From assembly GCA_018057825.1 (NCBI GenBank), contig JAGPCY010000020.1:1-41633 (forward strand): DNA of 41,633 bases. Reading direction: 5' to 3'. Numbering within the stretch: the first letter of the stretch is position 1; each line of letters starts with the position of its first letter. The DNA is from Kofleriaceae bacterium (lineage in GTDB: Bacteria; Myxococcota_A; Polyangia; Haliangiales; Haliangiaceae). The notes under the pieces are model-generated. The model saw only the letters and a program-made list of their open reading frames with translations, was not told the origin of the DNA and did not search any database. Shown in pieces: positions 472 to 24,304 of the stretch. Position numbers and translations under genes: made by a program.

Positions 472-2778
472 ATGCGCGACTTCGACGATCCGAGGAAGCA
501 GGGGCACAACCCCGAAGCGGCAAGCGGCGGCAAACCCGGCGTCAAGACGCGCGTCGAGTCGCGCTACGGCGGGGTCCAGCGAGCCCGGGCCCCGTCCCCG
601 ACCTATGGGCACCTGTCCCTCGTCCCCGGTCCGGTGATGCCTGAGAACGTCTTCGACACCTTCGCGCTCCACCTCGACCCGGTGCAGCGGGTCGCCGAGG
701 CCACCGCCCTCGGCCTCACGGATCCGGCCGCCGTTCACGCCGCGGCGGCCCGCGGCACCTCCGGCCCCGCCACCACCCTGCCTCACGCCGACGCCATCCA
801 GCGCTCGTTCGGACCCGACCACGACGTCTCCGGCATCCAGGCCCACGTCGGCGGCGCCGCCGCCACCGCCGCGACCGCCATCGGCGCCCGGGCCTACGCC
901 ACCGGCAACCGCGTCGCCTTCGCCAGCGCCCCCGACCTCCACACCGCCGCCCACGAGGCCGCCCACATCGTGCAGCAGCGCGGCGGCGTCCAGCTCGCCG
1001 GCGGCGTCGGCCAGGCCGGCGATCCCTACGAACAACACGCCGACGCCGTCGCCGACGCCGTCGTCGCCGGCCGCTCGGCCGCCGAGCTGCTCACGGGCGG
1101 ACGCAGCGGCGGCGCCACCGATGCGGTCCAGCGCAAGCCAGAGCCTGAGGTCCCCAGCCGCGGACACGACGACCCGGGGAATCGCAACAACGCCTGCGCT
1201 GTCGATGGGGCGCACGCCCCCAACGCGATCGAAGGCATCCAGCTGTACCTTACGGTCGAGGACCGACTGAACGGCCTCGCAACGCGCACCCTCAACTACT
1301 CGGAGATGGGACCTGGCATCGCCGGCCCATACAAACTCTTTGCGCACACGAAGGACGACCTTATCGTCTACTATGTTGCTCACCACGTGGAGCGACAGCA
1401 AAACGAGTGGGTGATCGGTCCCGCCAGCGCGGCGCTGTTCGCGTCGACCGTCGAGCTGTACGCGGGCTCGGCCGCGCAGTTGCTCCCGGGGAGCGCCAGG
1501 GTACCGGGCAGCCAGGCCGATGGTGCCGACCAGGTCAACGACCCGGACTCCGTGGTCAAGCAAGAGGCCCTCGGTCGGGCTCCATGGCAGGTCGCCGCCG
1601 ACGGGCTCGCCGGGGCGTCAGATGCTGTCGGCGACCACACCAGCGGCGGTGGTCTCCTCAACTTCGCTCGGAATTCGCGAATTCGACTCGCAAACTACGT
1701 GCGGCCTGCACAGGAGCTCGCGGAGCAGCTCGCCGCCGATGTCGCCGCTGGAAGAGTCGACCATCTCGAAGCAAGAAGACAAGCGGTGGAGGGGCGCAAC
1801 GCGCTCCTGCTCGATACCAGGCGCCGACAGTCGCCAGCCGCCAGCTATGCGTCGAAGGCCCTAAAGGAGGATCGCGGAAAGTCTGAGTCTGAGATGACCA
1901 GAAAGAAGGTCATCGACAATCTCGAGGACTATCGCGCTTCTGAGGCGACGCGGGCCGTCCTCGACGCCGACTCAGAGCTTTGGGGCAGATACGCCGAGGC
2001 CATGAGCAACGGCGAGGACGTCCTCAAGGACGCGCTTCGCGACCTTGGCCAGAGCCCCGCTGTCTCGCGCTCCATCGTTCAGAGTGCGGGCAAGACGAAC
2101 AAGGCCTTCACGCGTATCGCGCGATGGGGCGGCCCGGTCGGTCTCGCGATCGGATCTCTCGGCGCCGCGGACATGGTCCAGGACATCCGGGACCAGATCG
2201 AAGCTGATAACTGGCACGCCGCCGCCCGCGAGCTGGCCGGATTCGCGGGCGGCGTTGTCGGCGGTGAGCTAGGGGCGATGGGTGCTGTGTGGATTGCGTC
2301 CGCCATCGTGCCAGGGAGTGCCGGCGTCGTGATCGTGGCCTCCATCATCGGTGGCGCTATTGGCGGCCACCTAGGCGCTTCGGGTGGTGAGCGTGCGACG
2401 GACCTCATCGCCAGTGGACTTGCGCCCGGGCTGGTGACCCCTCTGGTATCCGCCGGGGGCTTGGCAGGTGCACACGACAAGGATCGAGCGCGCACCATTG
2501 CGAACCAGATCAAGGACGTCATCTTCAAGGCCGATGGGGACCTTGCCAAGCTCGCTGCGACGATCCCTGCCGCCAGCAGCCGTCGTGAACTCGTGGCTCT
2601 GCAGCGAAAGCGGCTGGAGGTCCTAGCCCGTCGACAGCAGTTGGAGGACTTGCTGACGGCCCTCCGGCTCGGAGCGTTCGAGGGCCCGGACGACTGTGCC
2701 GCACCGCCACCCGCGCCCGCGGCGTCGCAGGCGTGCGACAACTCCGACAACGATTGCGACTCAGAGGTCGGCTGGTGA
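472..2778 (+). CDS. DUF4157 (zincin-like HExxH) domain protein with a long helical C-terminal region and a glycine-zipper hydrophobic segment; polymorphic-toxin-like
   Basis: AGGAGG 7 nt upstream of ATG 472. DUF4157 signature ...GIQAHVGG...[15 protein letters not shown]...[14 protein letters not shown]-terminal segment [47 protein letters not shown] resembles the hydrophobic hairpin of pore-forming toxins. High GC3 in frame. The stop overlaps the next start (GTGA). Confidence 0.7.
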
Positions 2779-4901: not shown

Positions 4902-5621
4902 ATGCCTGCCATCGACTTTGTCTTGAAGCGTCTTTCGCTGACCTCGACTCGCGACGAGCTGCGCACCGTCGCGTATGCGCTTGGGGAGTGGCTGGTCGCG
5001 CGCGACGAGTCTGCCTTGAGCGCGAGCTACGATCGCTTGCGGGAGCTGCGCGGCGCCGCGCCGGCTGATTCGGCGTCGCGCGCGAGCTTCGATGTGCTGA
5101 CCAACCTGCTCGAAGGATACTTCGCCTCGGCCGAGAGCGTCCGCCGCGTCGAGCGCATGCAGCGCGAGGTGGAGGCCGAGCCGATCTGGCGAGCCGTGAT
5201 GCAGTGTCTCGCGAGCGAGCCGGCAAACCAGGACCTGTTGTGCCAGCGAGTTGGTCGCGCAAAGTCGACCGTGTCGGTCGTCTGCGAGGATCTTCGACAG
5301 CGTGAGCTGATCGAGCTCGTGCCGAACGCGAGCCGGCGCGAGAACGTCCATGCGCTGACGCGCCTGGGCAAGCAGGTGCTCGCGAGCCTGCCAGCCGAGG
5401 CCCCCAGCGCCGCCGCGTCGTCTGTCGCGACCGCCCAGCCGACCGTCGCGGCCCCGGCCGCGACCAGTGTGCGTCCGGCGAAGGCGACCGGTCCTCGGGC
5501 GCGGCCAGAGCGCGCGTCCGGAACGACGGCATCGACGTCGCGGAAGACGTCGTCGTCGAGTGATCTCGCCCGGCTGACGAGGGGCGGCCACCGGGGGCGG
5601 CGACCGCGGCACCCGTGGTAG
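4902..5621 (+). CDS. Winged-helix (MarR/ArsR-like) DNA-binding protein with an Ala/Ser/Thr-rich tail
   Basis: GGAGGG 6 nt upstream of ATG 4902. wHTH-like segment STVSVVCEDLRQRELIELVPNASRRENVHALTRLGKQVL. Ends 12 nt before the McrB-like gene. Confidence 0.55.
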   Translation: MPAIDFVLKRLSLTSTRDELRTVAYALGEWLVARDESALSASYDRLRELRGAAPADSASRASFDVLTNLLEGYFASAESVRRVERMQREVEAEPIWRAVMQCLASEPANQDLLCQRVGRAKSTVSVVCEDLRQRELIELVPNASRRENVHALTRLGKQVLASLPAEAPSAAASSVATAQPTVAAPAATSVRPAKATGPRARPERASGTTASTSRKTSSSSDLARLTRGGHRGRRPRHPW

Positions 5622-5632
5622 CGTTTCCGCCG

Positions 5633-8533
5633 ATGAACATGACCTTCGCGGACGCAGCGGAGCTGGTGTTGCGGGAGGCGGGGGAGGCGCTGATGGTGGC
5701 GGAGCTGTGGCGGCGGATCGAGGCGCGGGGGCTGGTGGAGACGGCGGGGGCGACGCCGGAGCAGACGCTGCGGGTGATGCTGTTGCGGCAGGCGGCGGGG
5801 TCGTCGCTGGCGGCGGGGAAGGGGACGCCGCGCTTCTATCGGCGGGGCGACGGCGCGTACGGGTTGTGGGCGGAGCTGGCGCCGGCGCAGCAGCAGGCGA
5901 TGGCGGAGGACGCGAGCGTGGCGGCGAAGCGCGTCCGGGTGCGCGACTTTGCGGCGGACCGCGAGGGGATGCGCGCAGACCCGACGGTGGCGGAGCGCAC
6001 GCTGGGGTGGCTGATCCCGGCGGATGGTCCACGGCGGGTGGTGGCGGAGCTCCTGGCCGTCGCGATCGAGGACGCCCACGCCGCCGGGGCCCACCGCTGG
6101 AAGCTGACGCTGGGACCGCGGTCCCTGCGCGTGACGGTGGGGCGTTGTCTGGTCTTGTGGATCGAGCGGCGGGTGTGGTTCCCGGTCCGGCTGGCGTCCT
6201 TGATGGCCGAGGATCGCGCGCTCATCGAGGGCCTCGGCGTCCAGGACACCGAGACCGGTCCGTTTCGCTCGATCGCGCCGGTCGAGTTCTTCACGATCGC
6301 GCCCGAGCTGGTGAGTGAGGCCGCAGAGGCGATCCGCCGCGCGATCGCGCCGATCATCACCGAGGCGGCGGTGGGGACGGCCGATGTCCATGGCGCGAAG
6401 TTCCACTCGCCGGGAGCGCTCACGTTTCTGTCCCAGGTGGTCGGGCGCGCGCTGCCGACGCCAGCCTACGGCGGGCACACCGAGGACGAGGCGCCGGAGG
6501 ACGACCCGGACGGCGACGCGCCGTCGCTGGCGGAGCTGGTGACCGAGTACATCGAGACCTTCGCGACCTTGCCGACGACCCAGGCCTACCTGGCGACCTA
6601 CGCGGCCGAGCGCGCCGCGGCCCGCGCCAACCTCGCGCGCATCGATGAGCTGCAGTCGCGAGGACAGGACGCGACTGACGCGATCCTCCTGGGCCTCCTG
6701 CCGCACACCGACTCGGCCAAGCATCGTCAGGTCGGCGCGTGGGTATCCCACGCCCCGGCGATCCAGGGCGACCTGAAGCTGTGGTTCGAGAACGCGAAGT
6801 GGGTGACGCCCGAGACTTGGCCCCAGGTCGCGGCCGAGCTGCTGGCGTTCGTGCGCGCGTGCCTGGCCAAGCCCCACGATGTGCGCGACGCGATCGCGCG
6901 GTTCACCGCGAGCCCGTGGTCCAAGGGCCTCGGGGTCGGCATGCTGACGCCGATCTTGAACGCGCTGGCGCCCGAGGACTTCCCGCTGGTGAACGCCAAG
7001 GTCGCGCGGGTGGTCGGCTACTTCAGCGGGGTCGAGGTCGAGGCGAGCTTCGCCGGGTACCCGACCGCGGTGCGGCTGTGGCGGACGCTGGTCGACGCGC
7101 AGGCTGGGCTGGGCGATCCGCGCCTCGGGGTCAGCCCGGGGGACGCCTTCGATCACTTCTGCCACTGGCTGGTGGCGGTCAAGCGCTTCGGGTTCGTCGG
7201 CGGTGTGGTGGCCGGCGTCGGCTACTGGAAGATCTCGCCGGGGCCGGGCGCCGAGCGCTGGGACGACTGGCGGACCCGGGGCGTCGCGGCGATCGGCGGC
7301 GAGCTGCTCGGCGACCTGACGCTGGTCGACGATGACGAGTTCGCGGCGCGGGTGGCGGACGCCGCGGCCCAGGACCCGAGCTACAAGATGAACGGGGCCC
7401 GGCAGTCGCTGCATCTGGCGCGGATGGCGATTGGGACGCTGCTGATCGCCAACCGCGGCAAGAATGAGGTGCTGGGGCTGGGCCGGGTCACCGGGCCGTA
7501 TCGCTTCGTCGAAGGGGTCGAGTACTGCCACGAGGTGCCGGTCGAGTGGTTCGACACGACCCCGCGCGCGGTCGAGCGCCCGGGCTGGGCGCGGACCCTG
7601 GTGCAGCTCGACAAGACGACGTACGACGACATCGCGGCCTTGCCGCCCCTCGAGCCCGCGATGGGCCCTGGGCCTGAGCCGCTCCCGGTGCCGCGCTTCG
7701 ATCGCGGACACTTCTTGGCGCAGACCGGCTTCACCGAGGCCACGGCCGACCGATGGTTCCGCATCCTGCAAGAGCGCAAGCAGCTCGTCATCCAGGGGCC
7801 GCCCGGAACCGGCAAGACCTGGGTCGCCGAGCGCCTGGCGCGCTGGTTGGTCGGCGGCGACGAGGCCCGCATCCACCTGGTGCAGTTCCACCCGGCGTAC
7901 AGCTACGAGGACTTCATCGAGGGCATCCGGCCGGTGTCGCGCGGCGCGGCGCTCAGCTACGAGCGCGTTCCGGGCTACCTCATGCAGCTCTGTCAGGTGA
8001 TGCCGCGACAGGGGCCGGTGGTCCTCATCATCGACGAGATCAACCGCGCCAACCTGCCGCGGGTGTTCGGTGAGCTGATGTACCTCCTCGAGTATCGCGA
8101 TCGGACCGTGCGGCTCGCCGGCGGTGGCGAGCTGGGCCTCCCGCTCAATCTCCATCTGATCGGGACGATGAACACCGCGGACCGATCGATCGCGCGGCTC
8201 GATCACGCCTTGCGCCGCCGCTTTGCGTTCCTCCGACTGCCGCCGGACTTCGAGGTCCTGCGCCGGTTCGCCGCGACGCACTGGTCGGAGCCGGTGGACG
8301 CGCTGATCGGGGTGCTCGAGGCGATCAACCGCGACATCGACAACCCCGACGGCCACCTCGGCATCTCCTACTTCATGAAGGAGGATCTGGCCGACCGCCT
8401 CGAGGACATCTGGCGCTGCGAGATCGAGCCGTACCTCGAGGAGCTGTTCTTCGACGACCGCGCGACGGCGGCCAAGTACACCTGGGACAAGCTGGCGGGC
8501 GGAGCGCTGGCGGGCTGGGTCGACGAGGCGTGA
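5633..8533 (+). CDS. mcrB: McrB-family AAA+ GTPase with a roughly 700-aa N-terminal extension that begins with a HARE-HTH domain
   Basis: McrB motifs: GPPGTGKTW (Walker A), FHPAYSYEDFIEG, LIIDEINRANLPRVFGEL (Walker B), IGTMNTADRS (NxxD GTP specificity), ALRRRFAF. N-terminus MTFADAAELVLREAGEALMVAELWRRIEARGL...TPEQTLRVML matches the HARE-HTH pattern. High GC3. Track ORF starts at GTG 5615; ATG 5633 chosen. Confidence 0.85.
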   Translation: MNMTFADAAELVLREAGEALMVAELWRRIEARGLVETAGATPEQTLRVMLLRQAAGSSLAAGKGTPRFYRRGDGAYGLWAELAPAQQQAMAEDASVAAKRVRVRDFAADREGMRADPTVAERTLGWLIPADGPRRVVAELLAVAIEDAHAAGAHRWKLTLGPRSLRVTVGRCLVLWIERRVWFPVRLASLMAEDRALIEGLGVQDTETGPFRSIAPVEFFTIAPELVSEAAEAIRRAIAPIITEAAVGTADVHGAKFHSPGALTFLSQVVGRALPTPAYGGHTEDEAPEDDPDGDAPSLAELVTEYIETFATLPTTQAYLATYAAERAAARANLARIDELQSRGQDATDAILLGLLPHTDSAKHRQVGAWVSHAPAIQGDLKLWFENAKWVTPETWPQVAAELLAFVRACLAKPHDVRDAIARFTASPWSKGLGVGMLTPILNALAPEDFPLVNAKVARVVGYFSGVEVEASFAGYPTAVRLWRTLVDAQAGLGDPRLGVSPGDAFDHFCHWLVAVKRFGFVGGVVAGVGYWKISPGPGAERWDDWRTRGVAAIGGELLGDLTLVDDDEFAARVADAAAQDPSYKMNGARQSLHLARMAIGTLLIANRGKNEVLGLGRVTGPYRFVEGVEYCHEVPVEWFDTTPRAVERPGWARTLVQLDKTTYDDIAALPPLEPAMGPGPEPLPVPRFDRGHFLAQTGFTEATADRWFRILQERKQLVIQGPPGTGKTWVAERLARWLVGGDEARIHLVQFHPAYSYEDFIEGIRPVSRGAALSYERVPGYLMQLCQVMPRQGPVVLIIDEINRANLPRVFGELMYLLEYRDRTVRLAGGGELGLPLNLHLIGTMNTADRSIARLDHALRRRFAFLRLPPDFEVLRRFAATHWSEPVDALIGVLEAINRDIDNPDGHLGISYFMKEDLADRLEDIWRCEIEPYLEELFFDDRATAAKYTWDKLAGGALAGWVDEA

Positions 8534-9708
8534 CGGTCCTCGACCTGACCGAGTGGAGCTGGGCGCCGCTCGGCGACGACGGCGCGGCGATCGCTGCGGC
8601 GGTCCGCGCGAGTCAGGTGCGGGGCCTCGAGGTCGCACCGCCGGACCCGTTGGCCGGCGAGCCGTGGCGACTGCGGTCGACTGGCCTGGTGGGCTACCTG
8701 CCCCTCGGCGCGGGGCTGCCGGCGCTTCGGATCGCGCCGAAGGTTCCGATCGCCAGCCTGGTGATGCTGCTCGAGCGGGCCTACGATCTCGGCAGCCTGC
8801 GGTGGCAACCGGGCGTCACGGCCGCGGCCACGATCGAGGGCCTGTACGACGTGCTGCTCGGACGGTTGTGTGAGCTGGTCGGGGCGCGGCTTCGCCGTGG
8901 GCTGTATCGCGCCTACGTCGAGACCCAGGACGAGCTGGTGATGCTGCGCGGAAGGCTCGCGGTCCCCGAGACGCTCGGTCGAGCGGCGCGCGGCAGCGTC
9001 CGGCTGGTGTGCGACTTCGAGGAGCTGACCGAGGATCTCGACGACAACCGCCTGATCCTGTGGACCCTCGAGCGCGCGCGGCGGGTCGGCCTCGGGCGAC
9101 CGTCCACCCGCGCCGCGGTCCGCGCGCACCATCGGTCGCTGTCCGGGGCGGTGACCCTGACGTCCTTCGCGGGCGCGGCGTGCGAGGGCCGCGCGTACCA
9201 CCGCCTGAACGCCGACTACCGGCCCATCCACGCGCTGTGTCGGGCGGTGCTCGATGCCTGCGGCGAGGCGGCCGCCGGTGGCCCGGCCGACGCGGTGCCG
9301 TTCACCGTCGACATGCCGCGGCTGTTCGAGCGCTTCGCGGCGCGCTGGCTGGCCGCCGAGCTGGCGCCGTGGCGCGTCGAGGCCCAGCATCCGTTCTCCC
9401 TCGATGCCGATCTCTCGTACTCCATCGATGTCGTGGTGCGCGACCCAAACACCCGTCGCGCCGTCGCGGTCCTCGACACCAAGTACAAGGACGCCGTGCG
9501 CCCGGCGCCGGCCGATGTGCAGCAGGTCGTGTTCTACGCCACCGTGCTCGGCTGCACCGACGCCTGGCTCTGGTACCCGCGCGCGGTCCCTCATCGCACG
9601 GTCACCGCGGGCGGCGTGCGGGTCCACACCTGCGGGCTCGATCTGGCGCGACCGGCGACCTGGCCGGCGGTGATCCCGGCGCTCGCGCGGACGCTGGCGG
9701 CGGCGTGA
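8530..9708 (+). CDS. mcrC: McrC-like PD-(D/E)xK nuclease subunit
   Basis: GTG 8530 overlaps the McrB stop (GTGA). C-terminal SIDVVVRD...AVLDTKYK matches the McrC (I/V)xDxKYK nuclease motif. Confidence 0.75.
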   Translation: MTVLDLTEWSWAPLGDDGAAIAAAVRASQVRGLEVAPPDPLAGEPWRLRSTGLVGYLPLGAGLPALRIAPKVPIASLVMLLERAYDLGSLRWQPGVTAAATIEGLYDVLLGRLCELVGARLRRGLYRAYVETQDELVMLRGRLAVPETLGRAARGSVRLVCDFEELTEDLDDNRLILWTLERARRVGLGRPSTRAAVRAHHRSLSGAVTLTSFAGAACEGRAYHRLNADYRPIHALCRAVLDACGEAAAGGPADAVPFTVDMPRLFERFAARWLAAELAPWRVEAQHPFSLDADLSYSIDVVVRDPNTRRAVAVLDTKYKDAVRPAPADVQQVVFYATVLGCTDAWLWYPRAVPHRTVTAGGVRVHTCGLDLARPATWPAVIPALARTLAAA

Positions 9709-9788: not shown

Positions 9789-9920
9789 ATGACCCGAATC
9801 GTCGTGCTCATCGCGATGATCGTAGGGTGCGGCAAGGGAGCCTCTGAGATGCCTACGTCTACAGCCGGAAACACGGCCGCCAACGTCGCAGCGGCCACGC
9901 CCTCGAGCGCGGCGCGGTGA
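9789..9920 (+). CDS. Putative small lipoprotein (43 aa)
   Basis: MTRIVVLIAMIVGCGKGAS signal peptide with a lipobox-like IVGC. No clear RBS. Confidence 0.3.
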   Translation: MTRIVVLIAMIVGCGKGASEMPTSTAGNTAANVAAATPSSAAR

Positions 9921-10062
9921 CGCCGTGATCGATCGGCGGAGTCTCGTTGTCGCTCGGCAGGTTCATCGCGGCACGTAGCTCATGGCGGTGCGATGGGCGC
10001 TGTCGGCGTGGGTGGCGCGCGGGAGCAGCGTACGGCTGACAGACCGCGGTATCCTCGCGGCC

Positions 10063-10332
10063 ATGAGGCAAACACTGTTGGTCGTCGTGCTTTTCGCCGC
10101 GTGTGGTGGGCCGCGCTCGACGGCGCCGGGTGGGGGCACGGCGGGGGGTGGGGATGGCAGCGGTTCGGCGACGACGGGGGGCGAGGGCGCGATCTGTGCG
10201 GTGGGCGCCCAGAACCAGGATCCGAACGCTCAGGCGGTGGCCTGCGCCGAGGGGCTCGAGTGCTGCTACCCGTGCGGCATCGAGGGCTGCGACTCGGTGT
10301 GCATGAAGGACTGCGGACCGCCGCGACCCTAG
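10063..10332 (+). CDS. Small Cys-rich lipoprotein (89 aa)
   Basis: MRQTLLVVVLFAACGG lipoprotein signal (lipobox FAAC), Gly-rich linker, then 10 Cys in 45 aa (CAVGAQ...CAEGLECCYPCGIEGCDSVCMKDC). Confidence 0.45.
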   Translation: MRQTLLVVVLFAACGGPRSTAPGGGTAGGGDGSGSATTGGEGAICAVGAQNQDPNAQAVACAEGLECCYPCGIEGCDSVCMKDCGPPRP

Positions 10333-10588
10333 GGTATCGTGAGGGGCCCGGTCGGCGGCGCAGGTTGCGCGAGCTGGGTGCCGTCGGGGGCGACCTCGAC
10401 GTTCGAAGCGCTGCAGACGCTGCGTGGCGAACAGATGCTGGAGGTCCGTGCGACGGTCGAGGAGCTCACGGCGCTGGCCTCGGACAGGAGGACGATGTGA
10501 AATAGCAGCGCCCTGGCCCGGCGGAAGGCCCGACCGCGGCGCGTTCGCCCTTGCTGTCCCATCACGTCTATTCGTCAGGGGCCCCTCC

Positions 10589-13500
10589 GTGACCACGATC
10601 AAGCAGCTCGCCGACCAGCGCGGTGTCAAGGTCACCGACGTGAAGCAGGTGCTGCGCAAGGCCTTCGCCGGCAACGAGTTCAAGTCGCCCGACTACTCGC
10701 TGTCGCCGGCGGAGGTCGCCGCGGTGATGGAGGGACTCCCGGCGCAGCTCGCCGCCCGCCGCGCGGCGCCGCGGGACGTCGCGGTCGAGCGGATCGCGGT
10801 GCCGCTCTTGGGCTGCGACGGGGTGCCGATCTCGGCGTCGACGGCGAGCCCGGCGATGCCGCAGGCCGGGGGCCGGGTGCGCCTGCTGCTCCACGGCGAC
10901 GTGATCGACTTCCTCGAGCGTGGGCGCGGCGAGGACCGGCCGCGGCAAGCGGCGGTGCAGCGCCTCCTGCGCGGGATGCTGGTCGAGGGGCGCGCGCAGC
11001 GCAGCGTGAAGGGCACGGTGGGCGTCAACCGGGGCTGGCTCCGCGCGCCGATCGGCGACAACGGCGGCTCGCACTACTACCTGTGGCACGCGCTGGCGGG
11101 CACGCCGTGTGTGGCCGCGCTCGCGCTGGGCAGGGATGAGGTCGTGGTGCGGGCGATCCGCCACCACGACGACACCAAGGTGGCGATCTCGGTGGGCGCG
11201 CGCGAGGACTACGTCGTCCTCGACGCCAGCGACTACGTGAGCCAGGTCGAGGCGGGCACCAAGGCCGCCGACTCGCTGTCCGACCCGCAGCGTCAGGCCT
11301 TCGACGCCGGCAGCTCGGTGACGATCACCAAGGGCCATCCCGGGGCGGGCAAGACCACGCTCCAGCTCGAGCGCACGCGCCGCCACGCCGGGCGGATCCT
11401 GTTTCAGACCTTCGGCGCCGCGCAGTGCGCGCAGGGGCGGCGCTGGCTCGAGACCTACGCGCCGCGCGGGCAGGTGGCGCGGGCCCTCACCCACGGCGAG
11501 GTCCTGGCCGCGCTGGCCCCGGGCCTTCCGGTGGCGCCGCCCCTCGAGCAGGCGGTGCGGTACCTGCGCCGCGCGCTCGCCCACGAGCCTCGGCTCGGCC
11601 CGTGGCGCGACCGGTGGACCGCGCTCCACGCCGAGCTGCGGGCCTGGTACTGGGGGCGGGCGCTGCCGGTCGACTTCCGCGGGGTCGACGCGATCGGCGC
11701 GGCCGCGACCGACGACGACCTCGAGCGCGGCTACCGGCGGCGACGGGACGGGGCCCTGCCGGCCGATGGGATCGACGCGGTGGTCGTGGCGGCGCGCGCG
11801 CTGTCGGCGGAGGACCGCGCGCACCTGTTCGGCGACCTCGAGGGCGCCCGGGCGGTGGCGGAGGCGCTCCTCGGCGGGGCCGATCTCCCAGCGGAGCTCC
11901 GCGACCTCGAGGCGATCTTCATCGACGAGGTCCAGGACCTGACCCTGGTCGAGGCCCTGGTCAATGTGCTGGTGGCCCGTCGCCCGGCCGCGTCGACCGG
12001 CTGTCGGCCGGCCTTCCACGTCGCTGGCGACGAAGGCCAGACCGTGCGCGCGACCGACTTCGCCTGGGGTGAGCTGAAGGACCTCATCCACGACGCGCTC
12101 GGGACCCCGACCGAGGTCGAGCTTCCGGGGAACCTGCGCTCGCCGCGGGTGATCACGCAGATCATCAACAACTCGTGGGCGCTGTACCAGGTGCTCGACA
12201 AGGGCGATCGGCCGCGGGGCGCCAGCACGGCCGAGGTCACCGAGGCGGCGATCGGCACGGTCTTGTGGGTCGACGCGGGTGGGTCGGAGGATGACGCAAC
12301 CGATGGGCCAGAGGGCGGGCCCGACGGCGGGTTGCGCGAGGTGTTCGCGGCGGCCGCCGGCCACGGCGCGACGATCCTGTATCCGGACGTGTTCGTGCCC
12401 GACGAGCTGCAGGCGCTGGCGCGAGCGACCAAGGCGACCGTGCAGGCGGCGCCCGACGCCAAGGGCCTCGACTTCCGCGTGGCCTTCGTGCTCGACGTCG
12501 GCCGACGGGCCCACGACCTGGCGACCCGACGCGGCGCGGCGCGCGACGGCGTGGCGGCGATCGAGACCCGGCTGGCGGTCGACGCGATCCGGGTCGCGCT
12601 GTCGCGCGCGACCGAGACGCTGGTCCTGGTCGAGCGCCCGCTGGCGGGGCAGGCCGAGGCGCAGCTCCGGCAGTTGTGCCAGGGCACCGACGGCCGCTTG
12701 CTCGACGGCGTCGTGACCGTGGAGCGCGGTGAGCTGGCGTCGCGCCTCGACGTCGACACCCACGATCGGGTCGAGATCGCGTCGGCGGCCCTCGAGGAGT
12801 TCGACGCGGTGGCCGGCGACGATCCGCGGCGCGCGCTCCGGGTGATGGCGCGGGCCCGCGGCTGGCTGGGCGAGACCTCGCGGGCCGGCGCGGTGCAAGG
12901 CGAGCTGCGGCGCAAGGTCTACCGGGCCCACGGCCTCGCGCTCCTGCAGGCGGCGGTGAGCTTCGCCGAGGACCGCGAGGCCCGGCTCACCCAGGCCAAC
13001 CGCGAGCTGTCGCTCGGCAAGGAGCACGAGCTGTCGCGCCTGGCCCTCGAGGTGCGCGACGCGATCGCGAGCACCGACACGCTCAAGCCGGCGGTCGCGC
13101 GCGCCACCGAGCTCGTGCGGGGCCAGCCCGAGCACGCGCGGCTCGGGTGGGCGCTCCTCGAGCTCGTCCTCGCCGAGGTCGCGCAGCGCGCCGACGCGTT
13201 CGAGCTGCGCGACTGGGACCGCGTGGTGAAGGCGCTGGAGCTGCTCGGCGGCGCTGGCGAAGCTACGCGCAACGCGGCGAGTCAGCGGTCGCAGCTCGGG
13301 CAGCGCGCCGTCACCTGGGCCGTCGCGCAGGGGCCGGGGAAGGCGACGACGACCATGGCGGTCGCGGCCCTGGCGATGATCGAGGCACCGTCGGCGATCC
13401 TGCGCGCGCAGCTCGCGGAGCGTCGCGAGGCCTGGGACGAGGCGATCTCACTCTACGACGAGGCCGGGCTGCCCCTCGAGGCCCTGCGCGTCGCCCGCGA

Positions 13501-13684
13501 TCACGACGAGTCGCCGGCCCGCGCCCTGGCCTTCGCGCGCTCCGCCGGCGCGCCGGAGGTCGGCCTGCTGGAGCGCCTGGCCCGCGTCCACGTGGACCTC
13601 GCCGCGCTGGCGCCGGCGGACCTCACGGAGAGCGAGCGGCAGAGGCTCGTCCAGTTCGCGCGCGAGCGTTTCGGGAAGCGGTGA
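10589..13684 (+). CDS. Divergent UvrD/PcrA-like SF1 helicase-family P-loop NTPase (1031 aa) with an N-terminal Rho_N/SAP-like motif and a roughly 350-aa helical Ala/Leu/Arg/Glu-rich C-terminal extension
   Basis: GTG 10589. Walker A TKGHPGAGKTTL; motif II IFIDEVQDLT; motif III HVAGDEGQTVRATDF; motif IV NLRSPRVITQI; motif VI IRVALSRATETLVLV. N-terminal TIKQLADQRGVKVTDVKQVLRK resembles Rho_N/SAP helix-extension-helix. High GC3. Confidence 0.75.
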   Translation: MTTIKQLADQRGVKVTDVKQVLRKAFAGNEFKSPDYSLSPAEVAAVMEGLPAQLAARRAAPRDVAVERIAVPLLGCDGVPISASTASPAMPQAGGRVRLLLHGDVIDFLERGRGEDRPRQAAVQRLLRGMLVEGRAQRSVKGTVGVNRGWLRAPIGDNGGSHYYLWHALAGTPCVAALALGRDEVVVRAIRHHDDTKVAISVGAREDYVVLDASDYVSQVEAGTKAADSLSDPQRQAFDAGSSVTITKGHPGAGKTTLQLERTRRHAGRILFQTFGAAQCAQGRRWLETYAPRGQVARALTHGEVLAALAPGLPVAPPLEQAVRYLRRALAHEPRLGPWRDRWTALHAELRAWYWGRALPVDFRGVDAIGAAATDDDLERGYRRRRDGALPADGIDAVVVAARALSAEDRAHLFGDLEGARAVAEALLGGADLPAELRDLEAIFIDEVQDLTLVEALVNVLVARRPAASTGCRPAFHVAGDEGQTVRATDFAWGELKDLIHDALGTPTEVELPGNLRSPRVITQIINNSWALYQVLDKGDRPRGASTAEVTEAAIGTVLWVDAGGSEDDATDGPEGGPDGGLREVFAAAAGHGATILYPDVFVPDELQALARATKATVQAAPDAKGLDFRVAFVLDVGRRAHDLATRRGAARDGVAAIETRLAVDAIRVALSRATETLVLVERPLAGQAEAQLRQLCQGTDGRLLDGVVTVERGELASRLDVDTHDRVEIASAALEEFDAVAGDDPRRALRVMARARGWLGETSRAGAVQGELRRKVYRAHGLALLQAAVSFAEDREARLTQANRELSLGKEHELSRLALEVRDAIASTDTLKPAVARATELVRGQPEHARLGWALLELVLAEVAQRADAFELRDWDRVVKALELLGGAGEATRNAASQRSQLGQRAVTWAVAQGPGKATTTMAVAALAMIEAPSAILRAQLAERREAWDEAISLYDEAGLPLEALRVARDHDESPARALAFARSAGAPEVGLLERLARVHVDLAALAPADLTESERQRLVQFARERFGKR

Positions 13685-13690
13685 GTCACC

Positions 13691-13889
13691 GGAGACCGAG
13701 GCGGAGACCGAGACCGAGGCGGAGACCGAGGCCGAGACCGAGACCGAGGCGGAGACCGAGGCGGAGACCGAGACCGAGGCGGAGACCGAGACCGAGACCG
13801 AGACCGAGGCCGAGGCCGAGGCGGAGACCGAGACCGAGACCGAGGCGGAGACGAGACCGAGGCCGAGACCGAGACCGAGGCCGAGACGC
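13691..13889. repeat. Hexanucleotide tandem repeat (GAGACC/GAGGCG/GAGGCC)n, about 32 units, with one unit carrying a 1-nt deletion near 13851
   Basis: Directly visible 6-bp periodicity from 13691 to 13889. One unit reads gagac instead of gagacc. Lies between the helicase stop (13684) and the zinc-finger gene start (13927). Confidence 0.9.
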
Positions 13890-13926
13890 GCGGCGGGCAG
13901 CGTCGGCGCGGCGACGCGCTACGGTG

Positions 13927-14109
13927 ATGGACATGGAGGACACCGCGCGCGTGCGCTGCCCGTACTGTCGTGAGTGGGTCGATCTGTACGTCGATCCGGA
14001 CTCGACCGGGGTGTGGGTCGAGGACTGCGCGGTGTGCTGTCGGCCGTGGTCGGTGATGGTCGAGCGCGGCGGCGGGAAGCTGCGGCTCCAGGTGGTGCGG
14101 GCGCAATGA
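13927..14109 (+). CDS. CPXCG-related zinc-finger protein (60 aa)
   Basis: MDMEDTARVRCPYCREWVDLYVDPDSTGVWVEDCAVCCRPWSVMVERGGGKLRLQVVRAQ matches the conserved CPxCG...EDCxVCCRP family pattern. Confidence 0.7.
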   Translation: MDMEDTARVRCPYCREWVDLYVDPDSTGVWVEDCAVCCRPWSVMVERGGGKLRLQVVRAQ

Positions 14110-14342
14110 CGGCGGCGCCGGCGGACGTGCGGCGGCTGGTGGGAACCGGGTGGACGAGCGCAGGGCCGATCGCGGGACGGCGGCACTGGGTGGTGGCGGC
14201 GGTGCGCGGCGACCAGGCTGAGCTTCGGTCGGTGCTGGCGCCGATCGCGAGCCACACCCTGGCCTGGCGCGAGCTGCGCGATCGCGCGCGCTGGCTGCCG
14301 GGCTGGCGGGTCTTGCCGCCGCCGGACGAGTCGGCGGGGTGA
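14106..14342 (+). CDS. Hypothetical protein (78 aa), translationally coupled to the zinc-finger gene
   Basis: ATG 14106 overlaps the TGA of the upstream gene (ATGA); very high GC3. Confidence 0.4.
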   Translation: MTAAPADVRRLVGTGWTSAGPIAGRRHWVVAAVRGDQAELRSVLAPIASHTLAWRELRDRARWLPGWRVLPPPDESAG

Positions 14343-14441
14343 GGGCCGGCGAACCACGACGCCGAGCTCGCGGCCGATCCATCGCGGCTGGCGGCGCGGC
14401 CTCGCGGCGAGCCAAGAGCGGCCGGTCAGGGCGGCGGGCGT

Positions 14442-14915
14442 TCAGCCCTCGCCGGTGCGGAGGAAACGCTGGATCGTGGACGCGGTCAGCTTGAAGCCCT
14501 GGCTGACCCGGCCGCGCCGCAGCGCCTCGTCGCTGGCGAGGTCGATCACCGCGAGGATCGCGTGGGGGTCGTCGTCGTCGAGGGCTACGTCGAGGTCGGC
14601 GCGGACCCGGGCGCCAGCGTCGGTGGTGAAGGTCAGCGTGCGATGGAGCGCGGCGCGCGCGGCCTGCTCGTGGCGGAGCAGCACCTCGCTGGCGGTCTTG
14701 ACCAGGGTGGCGAAGGCGCTGGCGTCGAGGGGCTTGGGGTTGCGCTTGTCGCGGCCCATGGTCCATGGGCCGACCAGGGCCGGCTCACTATCGCCGATGC
14801 GGGTCATGGCCACGGCCCAGCCGTCGTCATCCTCGTTCTTCTGCACCTGCGCGATCCAGCCGGCCTTGCGCCAGCGGGTCGGCTCGGTGATCTCGTCGTC
14901 GCTCGTCGGGTTCAT
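14442..14915 (-). CDS. Hypothetical protein (157 aa)
   Basis: Very high GC3 in the minus-strand frame; Asp/Glu/Lys-containing composition unlike antisense artefacts. No recognisable domain. Confidence 0.5.
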   Translation of the reverse strand: MNPTSDDEITEPTRWRKAGWIAQVQKNEDDDGWAVAMTRIGDSEPALVGPWTMGRDKRNPKPLDASAFATLVKTASEVLLRHEQAARAALHRTLTFTTDAGARVRADLDVALDDDDPHAILAVIDLASDEALRRGRVSQGFKLTASTIQRFLRTGEG

Positions 14916-19813: not shown

Positions 19814-21991
19814 CTAGGACCAGCGCGCCGACCAGAACAAGATCGGCCGACCGTCCGAGACCTGCGCCAGGGCCTCGATGGTGGTCCGCTCGACGTGGCG
19901 GTTGTTGGGGGTCCACAGGCTGATGACCTCGGCGTGCGTGTCACCGGTGAGCTGATCGACGACGGTATTGCCGGTCGCGATGCAGGCGTGGTTGGGCGCG
20001 TTCTCGAACACGACGATATCGCCCCGCAGCGGTCGTGGCGAGTTGGGGTCGCCTAGTCGGTAGGTCACCGGGTTGCTGCCACGGCACTGGTCCTCGAACG
20101 TCAGGCCGACCGAGAAGTGCGTGCCGTCCCGAACCCGCTGAACCGCGAGTTGGTAGATCTGGCGCAGGCGTTGCTCGCTGACGACGCCGGCTTGGAACGC
20201 GCCGAACATCACCAGCTCCCAGCAGTTCATTCGCCCGTTGTGCGGATCGGGCTGGGCCTGGGCGGCGAGGAGCCACTGACTGAAGTCGTCGGCGAGCAGC
20301 ATCGGGTCTTGGGCGACCAGCCCGCTGTTGTACTGCGCCCAGTTGAGGCCGCCGACCAGCCCTTCGGCGCCACCCGCCGCGCCCGACTGCGCTAGCGCCC
20401 GCTGCATGTAGGTCGCGCCCTGGGCGGTCATGTCGACTGCCTGCCCTTGCTGGAGATCGCGGAGCGCGAGGCGCAACGCGAGGAGCGCGTGGGCCTCGGT
20501 GTAGGTCGGTGCACCGTAGGCGTTGCGCAGCGGCTGGAACTCGGCGAGGGCGCGGACCTGATCATCGGTGAGGCGGCCCGGATCATTGGCGGCGTTGGTG
20601 GCGTCGGCGTAGGTCTGGAGCGTCGGGCCCTGAGGCGCGCGGTTTCGTGAGCAGCGCTGGAGCTGGAGACCGGTGCGCCACGGATCGCTCGCGGGAGCGC
20701 GGGCGGCCGTGGTCGCGACCGCGCGGTCGGCGTGGTCCTCGGCGGTCGCGTCCTCGGGCCCGATCGGCCGTCGGCGGGCCACCGGGTCGGCGGCCGCGTC
20801 GGCCTGCTGCGCGACGTGAGCCAGCTCGTGGGCGACGAGCGCGTCGCCCTCGAGAGAACCGGCCGCGGGCGCGGCGGCGCCCATGACGATGTTGGTGCCG
20901 ACGGTGAACGCCACGGCGTCGGCGGCGTCGGCCAGGCGCGCTGCGACGGGACCGGTGTGGATCCGGGCGTCGGGGACGGCGCTGCCGAGCGCGTCGCGCA
21001 GCCGGCTCGCCGTGGCGCCGTCGACGGCATGGCCTGGGCCGAGCTCGCGTTCGAGCGACGCCAGGGACGCGCCGCCGTCGGGGCCGCGCAGGGCGTTGGC
21101 CTCGGGCGCAGCCGCGGTGGGGGCGCCGCCGTCGAGGCTGGCGAGCTCAGGCGGTGGGTCGCCGGTGTCGCGCCAGTGCCGGACGCCGGCGCGGACCCGC
21201 TCTACCACGATCGGGATGATCGCCGCGGCAGAGGTCGCGGTGCGCACGCTCGGCGCAAACCGGCGAAGCAGCGCCTCGCCGTCCGCGGCGGAGCGGGTGG
21301 CGTAGCGGCCGAAGTACTGCTCGATGTACGGACAGCCGATCGCGCTGTAGATCGGCCCCAGCTCGGCGTCGGCGGCCTCCGTGACCTGGGCGCGCAGCGT
21401 CGCGAGGAAGACGTCCTTGATCATCTGCCCCGGCTGCGGCGGCCCAACGTCGACCAGGAGGCTGCGCGGCGGTCCGCCGCTGGTCACCTCGGCCGCGACC
21501 TGATCCGCCTCGTGCTCGGCTGGGCTGTCGGAGGCGCCGACCGTGACCGCGCGCGCGACGGCGCGCTGGCCGGCCGCGCCTTGTTGGGCGACGTGGGTCA
21601 GCTCATGAGCCATGAGCCCGAGATCGTCGCCGCGCTCGCCGGGCCCGAGGAAGACGTCGCCTCCGTAGGCGAAGGCGCGGGCGCCCATGGCCTGGGTCGC
21701 CTGCCGCGACAGGGGATCGTCGTGGACGCGCACGCCGGTGAGGTCGACGCCGAGGTGCCCGCCGACCCGCGCGGCGACCGCGCCGTCGACTGTTCCGCCG
21801 CTGCCCTTGTGGTCGACAGCCGCGGTCGCGGCGTCGTGGATCGACGCGTCGGCGCGATCGCCCATGGCTTGGGCCAACGCCGGGTAGCGCGCCGCCAGCC
21901 GCGAGCGCCGTCCGGGCGCGATAGTGCCGGTCCCCGCACTGCCCTCCGCCGTCGTCGTCGCCGTCGTCGCCGTCGAGGGATCCCGTTCCAT
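19814..21991 (-). CDS. Tandem DUF4157 (x2) protein with a C-terminal Cys/His domain; polymorphic-toxin-like (candidate papain-like or transglutaminase-like effector)
   Basis: Two copies of the DUF4157 signature: GVRVHDDPLSRQATQAMGARAFAYGGDVFLGPG...LMAHELTHVAQQ and DARIHTGPVAARLADAADAVAFTVGTNIVMG...LVAHELAHVAQQ. C-terminal ...NGRMNCWELVMFGAF...NAPNHACIATG offers a candidate Cys/His pair. Alternative ATG at 21865. Confidence 0.8.
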   Translation of the reverse strand: MERDPSTATTATTTAEGSAGTGTIAPGRRSRLAARYPALAQAMGDRADASIHDAATAAVDHKGSGGTVDGAVAARVGGHLGVDLTGVRVHDDPLSRQATQAMGARAFAYGGDVFLGPGERGDDLGLMAHELTHVAQQGAAGQRAVARAVTVGASDSPAEHEADQVAAEVTSGGPPRSLLVDVGPPQPGQMIKDVFLATLRAQVTEAADAELGPIYSAIGCPYIEQYFGRYATRSAADGEALLRRFAPSVRTATSAAAIIPIVVERVRAGVRHWRDTGDPPPELASLDGGAPTAAAPEANALRGPDGGASLASLERELGPGHAVDGATASRLRDALGSAVPDARIHTGPVAARLADAADAVAFTVGTNIVMGAAAPAAGSLEGDALVAHELAHVAQQADAAADPVARRRPIGPEDATAEDHADRAVATTAARAPASDPWRTGLQLQRCSRNRAPQGPTLQTYADATNAANDPGRLTDDQVRALAEFQPLRNAYGAPTYTEAHALLALRLALRDLQQGQAVDMTAQGATYMQRALAQSGAAGGAEGLVGGLNWAQYNSGLVAQDPMLLADDFSQWLLAAQAQPDPHNGRMNCWELVMFGAFQAGVVSEQRLRQIYQLAVQRVRDGTHFSVGLTFEDQCRGSNPVTYRLGDPNSPRPLRGDIVVFENAPNHACIATGNTVVDQLTGDTHAEVISLWTPNNRHVERTTIEALAQVSDGRPILFWSARWS

Positions 21992-22135
21992 GGCCGCAGC
22001 GTATCGTCCGGGTCGCGCCTGACCATCACCCTAGTTCGGTGAGGTGTCGGCCGACCCACCGCGTGCGGAGTCGGTCGAGCGAGTGGCTGGAATCCACAAC
22101 GGTCGCGGTAACTTGGAGGTAGGCGGTGGGGAGTT

Positions 22136-24304
22136 GTGCCGGTGCCGACCGGGGTGGTAGCGCTCGAAGCGATGGCCAAACCTCCAGCGACGACGCCCAC
22201 CCGCCTCGAGTTCTCCGACGGCACCAGCCACAAGTTCTGGCAGATCGAGCAGAGCGGTAAGACGCTCCACTCGACCTGGGGGCGGATCGGCACGGCGGGG
22301 CAGGGGCAAGCCAAGACCTACGCGACGCCCGAGGCGGCGCGGAAGGAGCTCGAGAAGCAGGTCGCGTCGAAGCGGCAGAAGGGCTACGCCGAGGTGGGCC
22401 AGCGCGCGGCGACGTCGGGTGCGAAGTCCGCCCCGACCAAGACCAAGACCAAGACCAAGACCGAGGCCAAGCCGAAGACCAAGGCCAAGACCCCGGTCGC
22501 GACGACGCCTCCACCGCCGAGCGCCGAGCCCCCGCGGCTGCGTCCGCGGCGCACGGTGAGCCTGATGGAGCTGTCGGGGCTGGGGCAGATGGGCCCCGAG
22601 CTCGACGAGGCGCTGAAGTACCCGGAGCGCGCGCACTTCGTGCAGTACGCCGACGCCGACAAGAAGCTGCGCAAGTTCCCGCGCCTGCGCAAGCTCGAGC
22701 TGAGCGACCCGGTGCCGTCGTGGGTCGGCGACCTCACGAGCCTGCGCACGTTGATCGGGACGGTCGGCAAGAAGCTGCCGGCGTCGCTCTTCACGCTGCC
22801 GCATCTGCGCTTCCTCCACCTCGATGGCTCGGACGAGCTGGCCGACCTGAGGGGGCTCGACAAGCTGCGCGCCCTCGAGACCGTGACCTGTGGGGATAGC
22901 GCGCTGTCCGACGAGGAGCTGGCGGCGGCGGCCAAGCAGCTCGGCGCGACCGTGACCAGCTTCATGCCGGGGCTCGACTTCAAGCGCGTGCCGCCCAAGC
23001 CGCCGCGCGATCGCAAGGCGATCGTGGCGGCGATGAACGCCGACACGCTGGCCGATGGCTCGGATCTGCGGGGCGTCGATCTGTCGGGGGCGACCTTCGA
23101 GCACGTCTACGTGACGCACGACCTCCGCGGCGCCAACCTGGCCAACACGGTGTGGCGGTCGTGCGACTTCGAGTGGTGCCAGGCGTCGGGCGCCGACCTG
23201 TCCGGCGCGACCTTCGAGGATTGCTACTTCCAGAGCTCGATGACCGAGGGGCTGTTCGAGAAGGCCAAGGCGCAGGGCGTGACCTTCATCGGCTGCGGCG
23301 GGGACCTGTACCTCCAGCGCGCCGACCTGCGCGACGCCAAGCTCCTGGACCTGGAGTCCGACGTCCACCTCGACCTGACCCGCGCCGACGCCCGCGGGTT
23401 GACGCTGTGGTGCTCGTTCGCGAGCGAGAAGGAGCATCAGTTCTCGGCCAAGGGCGCCGACCTGCGCGGCGCCCAGCTCCACCTCGACGTGTCCGAGGGC
23501 CGGCGCGCCGAGCTGAAGAAGAAGAAGACCGCGCGCTTGGCCTGGGCGACCGATCATTTCAAAGGCGCGAAGACCGACAAGACCACGCGGATCGAGTACG
23601 CGACCCTCGACGCGCGCGCGACCGGGCCGGCGACGCGCCCGGCCCAGGCGACGGTGATGACCGACGGGCCGGCGGCCAAGATCCTGGGCACGATGTACGC
23701 GCCCAACGCCGGCCTGTGGATGGTTGTCGCCGACGCCGACCTGGCGACCCAGTGGCGCGGCAGCGTCGACGAGGACGATCCCAAGGACGACTTCCAGCGC
23801 GCGCTCGAGATCGACGACCGGCGGATCGCGATCGGCGCCGGCCACGGCCTATGCCTGCAGATCGGGCATCGCAGCGGCTGGTCGCACCTGTTCGAGCGTG
23901 GCGACGAGCCCGGGCTGCACCTGGTCGACGCCGCGCTCAGCGCCAGCGATCGCGCGGCCCGGGACCGCGCGATCGCGCTGCGCGTAGGCCAGTGGCGCGG
24001 GGTGACCAAGCCCAAGGTGATCGGCAAGGTCGCGTGTCCGAGCGGTGTCCTCGCCCTGCTCTTGCCGTTCCGGGACGGGGCCTTCCCGGCGGCGATGCGC
24101 AAGCAAGCCAAGAAGGGCGTCGCGGTGGTCGAGCCGCGCGATCACGACCGCGCGCTGGTCGGCATGACCTCGGGCCCCGGCCTCTACGAGGTGACCCGCA
24201 CTCCGTTCCGCCCCGACAAGGGCAAGGGCGACTACGAGGACGAGCTGGGCGAGTACGGCGACCTGATCTCGATCCGTTACTGCGGCAGCATCCCAGGTCG
24301 ATGA
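22136..24304 (+). CDS. WGR domain - Lys/Thr-rich linker - leucine-rich repeats - pentapeptide repeats - uncharacterised C-terminal domain (722 aa)
   Basis: WGR: LEFSDGTSHKFWQIEQSGKTLHSTWGRIG...KQKGYAEV. KT-rich linker TKTKTKTKTEAKPKTKAKTP. LRR-like LRKLELSD.../LPHLRFLHLDGS.../LRGLDKLRALETV. Pentapeptide repeats GSDLRGVDLSGATFEHV...GANLANTVWRSCDFEWCQASGADLSGATFEDCYF. GTG start at 22136 (alternative ATG 22172). Confidence 0.75.
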   Translation: MPVPTGVVALEAMAKPPATTPTRLEFSDGTSHKFWQIEQSGKTLHSTWGRIGTAGQGQAKTYATPEAARKELEKQVASKRQKGYAEVGQRAATSGAKSAPTKTKTKTKTEAKPKTKAKTPVATTPPPPSAEPPRLRPRRTVSLMELSGLGQMGPELDEALKYPERAHFVQYADADKKLRKFPRLRKLELSDPVPSWVGDLTSLRTLIGTVGKKLPASLFTLPHLRFLHLDGSDELADLRGLDKLRALETVTCGDSALSDEELAAAAKQLGATVTSFMPGLDFKRVPPKPPRDRKAIVAAMNADTLADGSDLRGVDLSGATFEHVYVTHDLRGANLANTVWRSCDFEWCQASGADLSGATFEDCYFQSSMTEGLFEKAKAQGVTFIGCGGDLYLQRADLRDAKLLDLESDVHLDLTRADARGLTLWCSFASEKEHQFSAKGADLRGAQLHLDVSEGRRAELKKKKTARLAWATDHFKGAKTDKTTRIEYATLDARATGPATRPAQATVMTDGPAAKILGTMYAPNAGLWMVVADADLATQWRGSVDEDDPKDDFQRALEIDDRRIAIGAGHGLCLQIGHRSGWSHLFERGDEPGLHLVDAALSASDRAARDRAIALRVGQWRGVTKPKVIGKVACPSGVLALLLPFRDGAFPAAMRKQAKKGVAVVEPRDHDRALVGMTSGPGLYEVTRTPFRPDKGKGDYEDELGEYGDLISIRYCGSIPGR

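Follow-up and report, generated by a model that had tools for sequence, protein, structure and literature searches.

A predicted RelE/ParE-fold domain in a UvrD-like helicase encoded beside McrBC in a Kofleriaceae genome

The 41,633-nucleotide stretch of contig JAGPCY010000020.1 from a Kofleriaceae bacterium (assembly GCA_018057825.1), analyzed here over its full length and called the window, encodes a 1031-amino-acid multidomain protein at positions 10589–13684 of the plus strand. At the level of fold only, the N-terminal domain of this protein is modeled as a RelE/ParE-type toxin-like domain; it is followed by a superfamily 1 (SF1) helicase motor and by a solenoid resembling tetratricopeptide repeats (TPRs). 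Recognition of the N-terminal domain is what is new here, and it would place the gene in a hitherto unannotated toxin-motor-solenoid family whose function we infer. We read the gene as a self-contained, single-polypeptide module of that family, with a likely role against phages or other mobile elements; this is a tentative reading, held with somewhat less than even confidence. Such a role appears the most likely one because the gene lies next to a type IV McrBC system in a variable defence island.

With a GC content of ~72%, the window has open reading frames (ORFs) in every frame, and the real ones were picked by their third-position GC content (GC3). The 1031-residue frame has a GC3 of 0.93 and is further backed by full-length homologs and an AlphaFold2 model; it starts at a GTG (VTTIKQLAD) 881 bp past the McrC stop codon, and this N-terminus is kept in homologs. 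GC3 analysis likewise backs the frames of the other elements listed in a first-pass annotation of the locus, all of which are real and lie where that annotation had put them. The protein matches nothing in Pfam (even at E ≤ 10), NCBIfam, PADLOC or, by phmmer, the PDB sequences; too divergent for any curated model, it escapes the UvrD-type Pfam models PF00580 (UvrD-helicase), PF13361 (UvrD_C) and PF13245 (AAA_19), and PF13245, PF13604, PF00580 or PF01443 is present in only a minority of its relatives. Homologs are full-length proteins of ~1000 residues from Kofleriaceae and other Myxococcota, Acidobacteriota (mostly Bryobacterales), Planctomycetota, Gemmatimonadota and a few other groups, some of them named “TPR repeat protein” in their source records. 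An exhaustive profile search of 1.84 billion representative sequences yielded ~530 clusters (at 50% identity) with E ≤ 1e-30, and a relative is encoded in 349 of 185,579 species genomes, sporadically over several phyla.

The motor core occupies residues ~232–715 (11282–12733, plus strand). SF1 motifs Q, I, Ia, II, III, IV, V and VI are all intact, and their key residues are invariant in the 45 sequences of the family alignment (24–74% identity). Located in the window protein are the Q-motif (residues 231–238), the Walker A sequence GHPGAGKTT (249–257), IFIDEVQDLT (443–452), AGDEGQTVR (479–487), GNLRSPR (514–520), AKGLDF (624–629) and VALSRATE (669–676). An AlphaFold2 model built on the 45-member alignment has a predicted local distance difference test score (pLDDT) of 91.1 and a predicted template modeling score (pTM) of 0.82, and its RecA-like domains are nearer in fold to UvrD/Rep/PcrA than to other helicase classes. 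By Foldseek, the model core matched UvrD, HelD, PcrA, FBH1, Rep and AddA at E-values of 1e-11 to 1e-7 and 13–16% identity, whereas Upf1-type helicases were matched more weakly, at 1e-5; structural matches to the SF1A proteins UvrD, Rep, PcrA and HelD span 13–18% identity. Run against PDB sequences, the family profile found FBH1 (6.8e-9) and PcrA (2e-5). The first-pass annotation had described an SF1 UvrD-like ATPase with additional N- and C-terminal domains, and so it proves from motifs, family profile and fold, although the label “UvrD-like” is one that no curated sequence model gives to the window protein.

Residues ~98–225 (10880–11263, plus strand) make up the domain modeled with the RelE/ParE/HigB/YoeB (BECR) fold; the earlier annotation had correctly marked an extra domain here but had called it unknown, overlooking the fold. 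It contains the best-conserved block of the protein outside the motor, which in the 45-member alignment reads K141-G-x3-G-x3-G-W-x-R…G…Y-L-W…R188-x-x-R191-H192-H193-D194. K141, R152, Y164, R188, R191, H192, H193 and D194 are invariant in all 45 members, and this K/R/Y/R/H/H/D set falls on or beside predicted strands beta2–beta4. RelE-type RNases keep their catalytic residues on the sheet, and the RelE-like domain of the window protein may be an active nuclease. A profile search with the domain found it only inside the helicase architecture or in fragments, mostly frameshifted, of the same gene, and this variant of the fold seems confined to that architecture. Stand-alone or differently fused copies were considered and rejected, as all short matches are frameshifted or truncated pieces of the same gene. 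Note that many database “proteins” of 130–270 residues (P0265, P0317, P0339, P0352, P0365 and others) are such frameshifted pieces on long contigs, broken, for example, at Walker A; they likely reflect indel errors in long-read metagenome-assembled genomes (MAGs), and they could be mistaken for stand-alone toxins. No conserved small ORF that might encode a cognate antitoxin lies within 700 bp on either side of the gene across loci.

The remaining parts of the protein are helical. Residues ~720–1031 (12746–13681, plus strand) form an all-alpha, TPR-like solenoid: the C-terminal 250–300 residues of the family profile match the TPR regions of IFT172 (3.5e-13), WDR19 and IFT140, and the region is all-helical in the AlphaFold2 model with a pLDDT above 90. 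Residues 1–60 (10589–10768, plus strand) are predicted to form a three-helix module of IF2_N/HeH-like type, with helices at residues 4–11, 15–25 and 40–59; PF04760 (IF2_N) matches below threshold, at E 0.022. The Rho_N/SAP-like motif proposed for this end in the first-pass annotation has weak support in that match and those helices. Members from Myxococcota have the module and those from Acidobacteriota do not. In acidobacterial members (e.g., P0049, P0062, P0067, P0071 and P0084) the first ~85 residues are missing, and the C-terminus carries a Lys/Ala/Pro-rich tail of 30–60 residues, often with an acidic-aromatic tip (EFF, ELF, EDLF, KEYF), reminiscent of histone-H1-like DNA-binding tails or of SSB-type C-terminal tips.

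Upstream of the helicase gene are the two genes of a type IV McrBC system, an McrB AAA+/GTPase gene followed by, and overlapping by 4 bp, a gene for an McrC nuclease of the PD-(D/E)xK type. The McrB-like subunit (5615–8533, plus strand; 972 aa) has an N-terminal HARE-HTH domain (PF05066, 4e-11) and an AAA_5 domain (PF07728, 9e-24) in the Pfam architecture HARE-HTH, DUF8426, AAA_5, McrB_lid, and it matches the NCBIfam model NF008457 McrB at E 1.2e-41, below the equivalog cut-off. The McrC subunit (8530–9708, plus strand; 392 aa) matches PF10117 McrBC at 5.6e-29, above the cut-off, and NF007277 McrC at 3e-22.

Genomic context was compared over 90 helicase loci, ~84 of them distinct, with McrBC scored within 10 kb. 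In the Kofleriaceae-like subfamily (at least 45% identity), six of ~10 distinct loci adjoin defence systems. McrBC lies upstream of the helicase in the window but downstream in L001 and L011; L001 has an MmeI-type methyltransferase (MmeI_Mtase) and a large AAA protein upstream, and L011 has a PDC-S27 candidate (PADLOC, E 5e-207) at its positions 13151–14608, between helicase and McrB. In L005, whose helicase is the nearest relative of the window protein (90% protein identity), the first gene after the helicase (6147–6722) is PDC-M63A-like (DUF6932, PADLOC 1e-12); L008 (71%) has a PLD gene upstream and, downstream, BrxE/BrxB with a DUF4011 helicase, a BREX-like arrangement. L173, with a 45%-identical helicase homolog, has a VapE-like/DUF5906 primase upstream and a Dpd-like QueC/QueE/QueD/FolE/TGT cluster downstream. 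This cluster (L173 8483–16108; QueC/radical-SAM/PTPS/GCHY-1/TGT(+DUF6884)/DUF87) looks like a Dpd 7-deazaguanine DNA-modification system. No obvious defence genes were seen at four other loci of the subfamily (L002/3, L004, L006/7 and L013). At L002 (6154–7916) and L003 (1327–3089), which derive from a Kofleriaceae MAG, two tandem metallo-beta-lactamase-fold genes matching the Pfam family of Anti-Pycsar Apyc1 sit ~2 kb upstream of the helicase homolog, and in L002 and L004 the immediate neighbor of the helicase is a divergently transcribed 2OG-Fe(II) oxygenase gene (PF13759). The defence island suspected in the first-pass annotation is therefore borne out, by McrBC beside the helicase in this and two other genomes and by the assorted systems next to close relatives; the association is real but specific to the Kofleriaceae-like lineage.

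The three McrBC-linked loci share little else. Their gene order is permuted and their flanks are otherwise unrelated, and helicase and McrBC have diverged to a similar degree (~77% and ~78% nucleotide identity, respectively); McrB orthologs are 75–78% identical in protein sequence (L001/L012 and L011) and McrC orthologs 62–66% (L001 and L011). The 3′ end of the MmeI-type methyltransferase gene is 92.7% identical between L011 (77–406) and L001 (4884–5213), where the helicases are 81% and McrBC 78% identical, which suggests a recent exchange of the methyltransferase segment between these two loci. The DNA common to the window and its relatives amounts to the helicase ORF and ~65 bp upstream of it: the blastn matches to L005 (91.6%) and L008 (74%) run from 10524–10527 to the stop codon (13684/13685). 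The conserved 5′ region (10524–10588, plus strand), a probable promoter or 5′ untranslated region, is the left edge of the shared unit. In keeping with a self-contained gene, all-against-all clustering of the neighbors returned no family-wide conserved neighbor; the recurrent clusters are common paralogous families (PSCyt2/PSD1/DUF1501, PQQ, SDR, TonB, MacB and kinases).

If the favored reading is right, effector activity would lie in the RelE-like domain, most likely as an endoribonuclease directed at RNA or the ribosome that, like RelE, HigB and YoeB, cuts mRNA on the ribosome. The ATP-driven motor would track on nucleic acid and, in cis, either hold the RelE-like domain inactive or direct it to its target, and the TPR-like solenoid would bind a protein or a trigger, serving as regulator or sensor within the same chain. 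The polypeptide would then be a toxin fused to its regulator, with motor and solenoid acting in cis as in fused toxin-antitoxin proteins and Cami1, so that the gene could do without a separate antitoxin. In the Kofleriaceae-like lineage, the outcome may be translation shut-off or abortive infection alongside McrBC. A more elaborate proposal is that of a new single-gene conflict class, in which a ribosome-dependent endoribonuclease of the RelE type is gated in cis by a UvrD-like SF1A motor with a TPR sensor until foreign nucleic acid or a phage protein unleashes the toxin, a class that stands beside McrBC in Kofleriaceae and is convergent with the UPF1-like, RNase toxin-like (RTL) domain-bearing helicases of CoCoNuT systems; taken as a whole, we regard this as rather unlikely. 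A bolder version would be a bacterial helicase-nuclease mRNA-surveillance factor acting at the ribosomal A site.

Several results weigh against a toxin-based defence module. A Pfam scan of 27 sequences of the N-terminal domain matched no toxin family at E ≤ 1, a profile of the domain found nothing among PDB sequences, and hhalign comparisons with E. coli YoeB and RelE gave non-significant E-values of 0.15–0.25; the catalytic competence of the domain is argued from residue conservation. Among distant subfamilies, the commonest of 142 nearest neighbors encode ThuA, kinases, WS_DGAT, oxidoreductases, PQQ and SDR proteins; the commonest PADLOC matches listed are to generic Ser/Thr kinases and true UvrD helicases, none in more than four members; and 150 second or third neighbors, together with two fully annotated 20-kb contexts, are likewise ordinary genes. 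The GC3 of the helicase gene (0.93) is native-like, and the gene could be a long-term resident that merely borders an integration hotspot. The contexts themselves were read from MAG contigs with crude ORF calling. These neighbor censuses are coarse, being made with our own GC-frame ORF caller (a GC1>GC2<GC3 rule) and with PADLOC for the 25 commonest families only.

These same contexts raise the possibility of a housekeeping or quality-control helicase, in which a non-toxic RelE-fold module binds RNA, the ribosome or RNA polymerase and so targets the UvrD-like motor to stalled complexes, while proximity to defence genes is incidental to an integration hotspot. The first-pass annotation had itself named housekeeping contexts free of McrBC and zinc-finger linkage as telling against a defence role, and for distant members, which lie among metabolic and regulatory genes with neither linkage, that is what is found. 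Native-like codon composition, a length and architecture kept across phyla, the presence of the RNA polymerase-associated SF1 proteins HelD and UvrD among the best structural matches, and acidobacterial tails of a Lys/Ala/Pro-rich kind typical of nucleic-acid-binding proteins all fit the idea, as does the comparison of the window with L005, in which the helicase and the downstream CPXCG flank (see below) keep their synteny around an insertion of variable DNA, as at a hotspot. However, only ~0.2% of species genomes, from scattered and unrelated phyla, encode a relative, which is unlike a core function; both flanks vary among close relatives, and the McrBC linkage survives rearrangement. Between the window and L005 the helicase evolves faster (90% protein identity) than the adjacent core genes (96–97%), and the RxxRHHD/K/R/Y cluster, invariant and placed on a toxin fold, points to catalysis more than to binding alone. 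We consider a housekeeping role unlikely on balance, though deserving of real weight.

Less probable again, and in our judgment improbable, is a role as accessory subunit to the neighboring McrBC, which would then be an expanded type IV restriction system akin to CoCoNuT types II and III, where an SF1 helicase bearing a RelE-like domain acts together with McrB and McrC homologs. The helicase and McrBC are the only genes common to the window, L001 and L011 within ~10 kb, their divergence is similar, and the linkage persists through a change of order; in addition, the CnuH helicases of CoCoNuT carry an RTL domain and are nearly always McrBC-linked, in Myxococcota included (PMC11090510). On the other hand, McrBC is found within 10 kb at only three of the ~84 distinct helicase loci, and the close relatives in L005 and L008 have other systems in its place. 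Unrelated genes intervene where the two do occur together (lipoprotein genes in the window, PDC-S27 in L011, a minus-strand ORF in L001), the helicase fits UvrD-like folds better than UPF1-like ones and comes without an SmpB-like OB fold or a CnuE/HEPN partner, and McrB has the HARE-HTH/DUF8426/AAA_5 architecture with an McrC of ordinary size.

The first-pass annotation had proposed, as an alternative to a composite defence island, that the helicase, a CPXCG zinc-finger gene and a small ORF coupled to it form one helicase-based system, a proposal effectively refuted, as adjacency in the window (a 243-bp gap filled by a repeat) and a shared strand are its sole support, whereas in L005, the only one of the 90 helicase loci in which the genes co-occur, an 8.9-kb block of seven genes separates them, and the pair is both better conserved (96–97%) than the helicase (90%) and retained with the downstream core flank.

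The 60-residue CPXCG cysteine-rich protein (13927–14109, plus strand) matches PF14255 at E 2.3e-12 (47.1 bits against a cut-off of 25.2), and the 78-residue, Trp-rich DUF2389/TIGR02450 protein (14106–14342, plus strand) matches PF09493 at 8.6e-12 (45.9 bits against 25) and TIGR02450 at 1.6e-10 (41.3 bits against 36.85). The two genes overlap by 4 bp (ATGA), identically in the sister genome L005. Together with the next gene on the minus strand, which encodes a 157-residue protein, they recur among the helicase loci only in L005, at 96–97% protein identity (96% for CPXCG), and tblastn found CPXCG/DUF2389 at none of the others. Because the L005 block splits the pair from the helicase, we assign it to the conserved flank; CPXCG and DUF2389 are an independent conserved gene pair of the core flank and not part of a helicase unit. 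Literature searches on DUF2389 and CPXCG returned nothing relevant.

The repeat between helicase and CPXCG genes is an intergenic hexanucleotide array (13690–13887, without strand) of ~33 units of GAGACC/GAGGCC/GAGGCG over 198 bp, with a Tandem Repeats Finder score of 252–291 and 18 pattern matches against 0 expected in shuffles. The seven-gene block of L005 lies exactly at its position. All reading frames are shifted by a 1-nt deletion inside the array, near 13848, and neither the 170 loci fetched nor the remainder of the window contains the repeat; for these reasons, the array is best read as a non-coding microsatellite, with no apparent function beyond marking a variable island junction. 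Other tandem arrays in the window, apparently inside coding regions, are found at 31150–31390 (18/36-nt periods, score 317), 33687–33848 (21/63-nt periods, score 253) and 22435–22492 (a (GACCAA)n hexamer array).

Two small ORFs fill the space between McrC and the helicase. The first, read from sequence as lipoprotein-like (ATG, 9790–9920, plus strand; 43 aa, MTRIVVLIAMIVGC), has a signal peptide and the lipobox IVGC; it matches no Pfam family and was not found in any related locus. The second (ATG, 10064–10332, plus strand; GC3 0.85) would encode an 89-residue Cys-rich, lipoprotein-like product with the lipobox FAAC (MRQTLLVVVLFAAC), for which there was no match in Pfam, PADLOC or NCBIfam and no counterpart in related loci. 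On the far side of the island, the 157-residue ORF next to the CPXCG pair (14442–14915, minus strand) has no Pfam, NCBIfam or PADLOC match and belongs to a widespread family with at least 298 relatives in a metagenome scan, the best 80 at 52–77% identity; in a search for the same chromosomal site without the helicase, the loci of these 80 best homologs shared no other gene with the window. Elsewhere in the window, ORFs at 202–2775 (plus strand, 858 aa) and 19817–22030 (minus strand, 738 aa) contain an eCIS_core/DUF4157 domain (E 1e-11 and 1.8e-39, respectively), a domain characteristic of extracellular contractile injection system cargo or toxins. Both GC content (0.65–0.68) and GC3 (~0.8) are lower over the first 5.5 kb than in the rest of the window, which suggests that the DNA upstream of McrBC was recently acquired.

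To our knowledge, nearly all known RelE/ParE toxins are small proteins under separate antitoxin control. Were the fold assignment and the favored reading to hold, a family of more than 500 clusters with a RelE fold built into a helicase would widen the known modes by which translation-targeting toxins are controlled. In practical terms, a “hypothetical” family of ~1000-residue proteins in Myxococcota, Acidobacteriota and Planctomycetota gains an annotation, and the false lead of a helicase-zinc-finger system is removed.

RelE-like domains fused to regulators or to helicases in conflict systems are, of course, already a known kind of arrangement. The window domain is modeled with the fold of the RelE/ParE (BECR-fold) toxins HigB, YoeB, RelE, YafQ and ParE, and its conserved Lys, Arg, His and Tyr residues on the sheet may match the active sites of RelE-type RNases; it differs in having no detectable sequence similarity to them, in being embedded in a 1031-residue helicase rather than standing alone at ~90 residues, and in having no adjacent antitoxin gene. 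Cami1, a CRISPR ancillary effector that combines CARF with RelE, and further defence toxins of the multidomain RelE/ParE kind follow the same idea of joining a RelE-fold effector in cis to a domain that senses or regulates, but the sensor of the window protein would be an SF1 ATPase with a TPR solenoid and not CARF. Helicase fusions go unmentioned in a recent survey of multidomain RelE/ParE toxins (Gerdes 2025, PMC11980606), and our literature searches brought up neither an account of a RelE-UvrD-TPR architecture nor, CoCoNuT aside, a precedent for a fusion of RelE/BECR with UvrD. Among helicases, UvrD, Rep, PcrA and HelD have the same RecA-like 1A/2A core with all SF1 motifs, to which the window protein adds the RelE-fold and TPR domains. 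The comparison with the UvrD-like GajB of Gabija, drawn in the first-pass annotation, fails: there is no PADLOC match to GajB at E ≤ 0.01 and no neighboring gene for a GajA-like (OLD-family) nuclease partner, and membership was rejected.

The closest precedent is CnuH of CoCoNuT types II and III-A, which like the window protein is an SF1 helicase with a RelE-like domain directly N-terminal to the motor. The RTL domain of CnuH is detectable by structure only and not by sequence (Bell et al., eLife 2024, PMC11090510), and CnuH is encoded beside McrB and McrC homologs, with examples in Myxococcota, in systems predicted to act in RNA-directed defence (PMC11090510). CnuH itself belongs to the UPF1-like (SF1B) helicases and has an OB/stalk, a coiled-coil insertion and an SmpB-like OB fold at its N-terminus; its partner is the wHTH-HEPN effector CnuE, often with TerY-P (PMC11090510). 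The window protein, in contrast, is UvrD/Rep/PcrA-like by Foldseek (1e-11, against 1e-5 for Upf1) and ends in a TPR solenoid; by Pfam, neither PF13086 nor PF13087 occurs in any family member. Its predicted secondary structure contains no OB-type beta-barrel, the N-terminus being the three-helix module, and no CnuE-like gene lies downstream: that side holds the repeat, CPXCG and DUF2389 in the window and no conserved gene in the family. Membership of CoCoNuT was accordingly rejected on helicase class and on the missing CnuE, SmpB-like OB fold and stalk OB fold. The window protein would instead be a second and independent example, after CnuH, of an SF1 motor near McrBC that is joined to a RelE-like domain.

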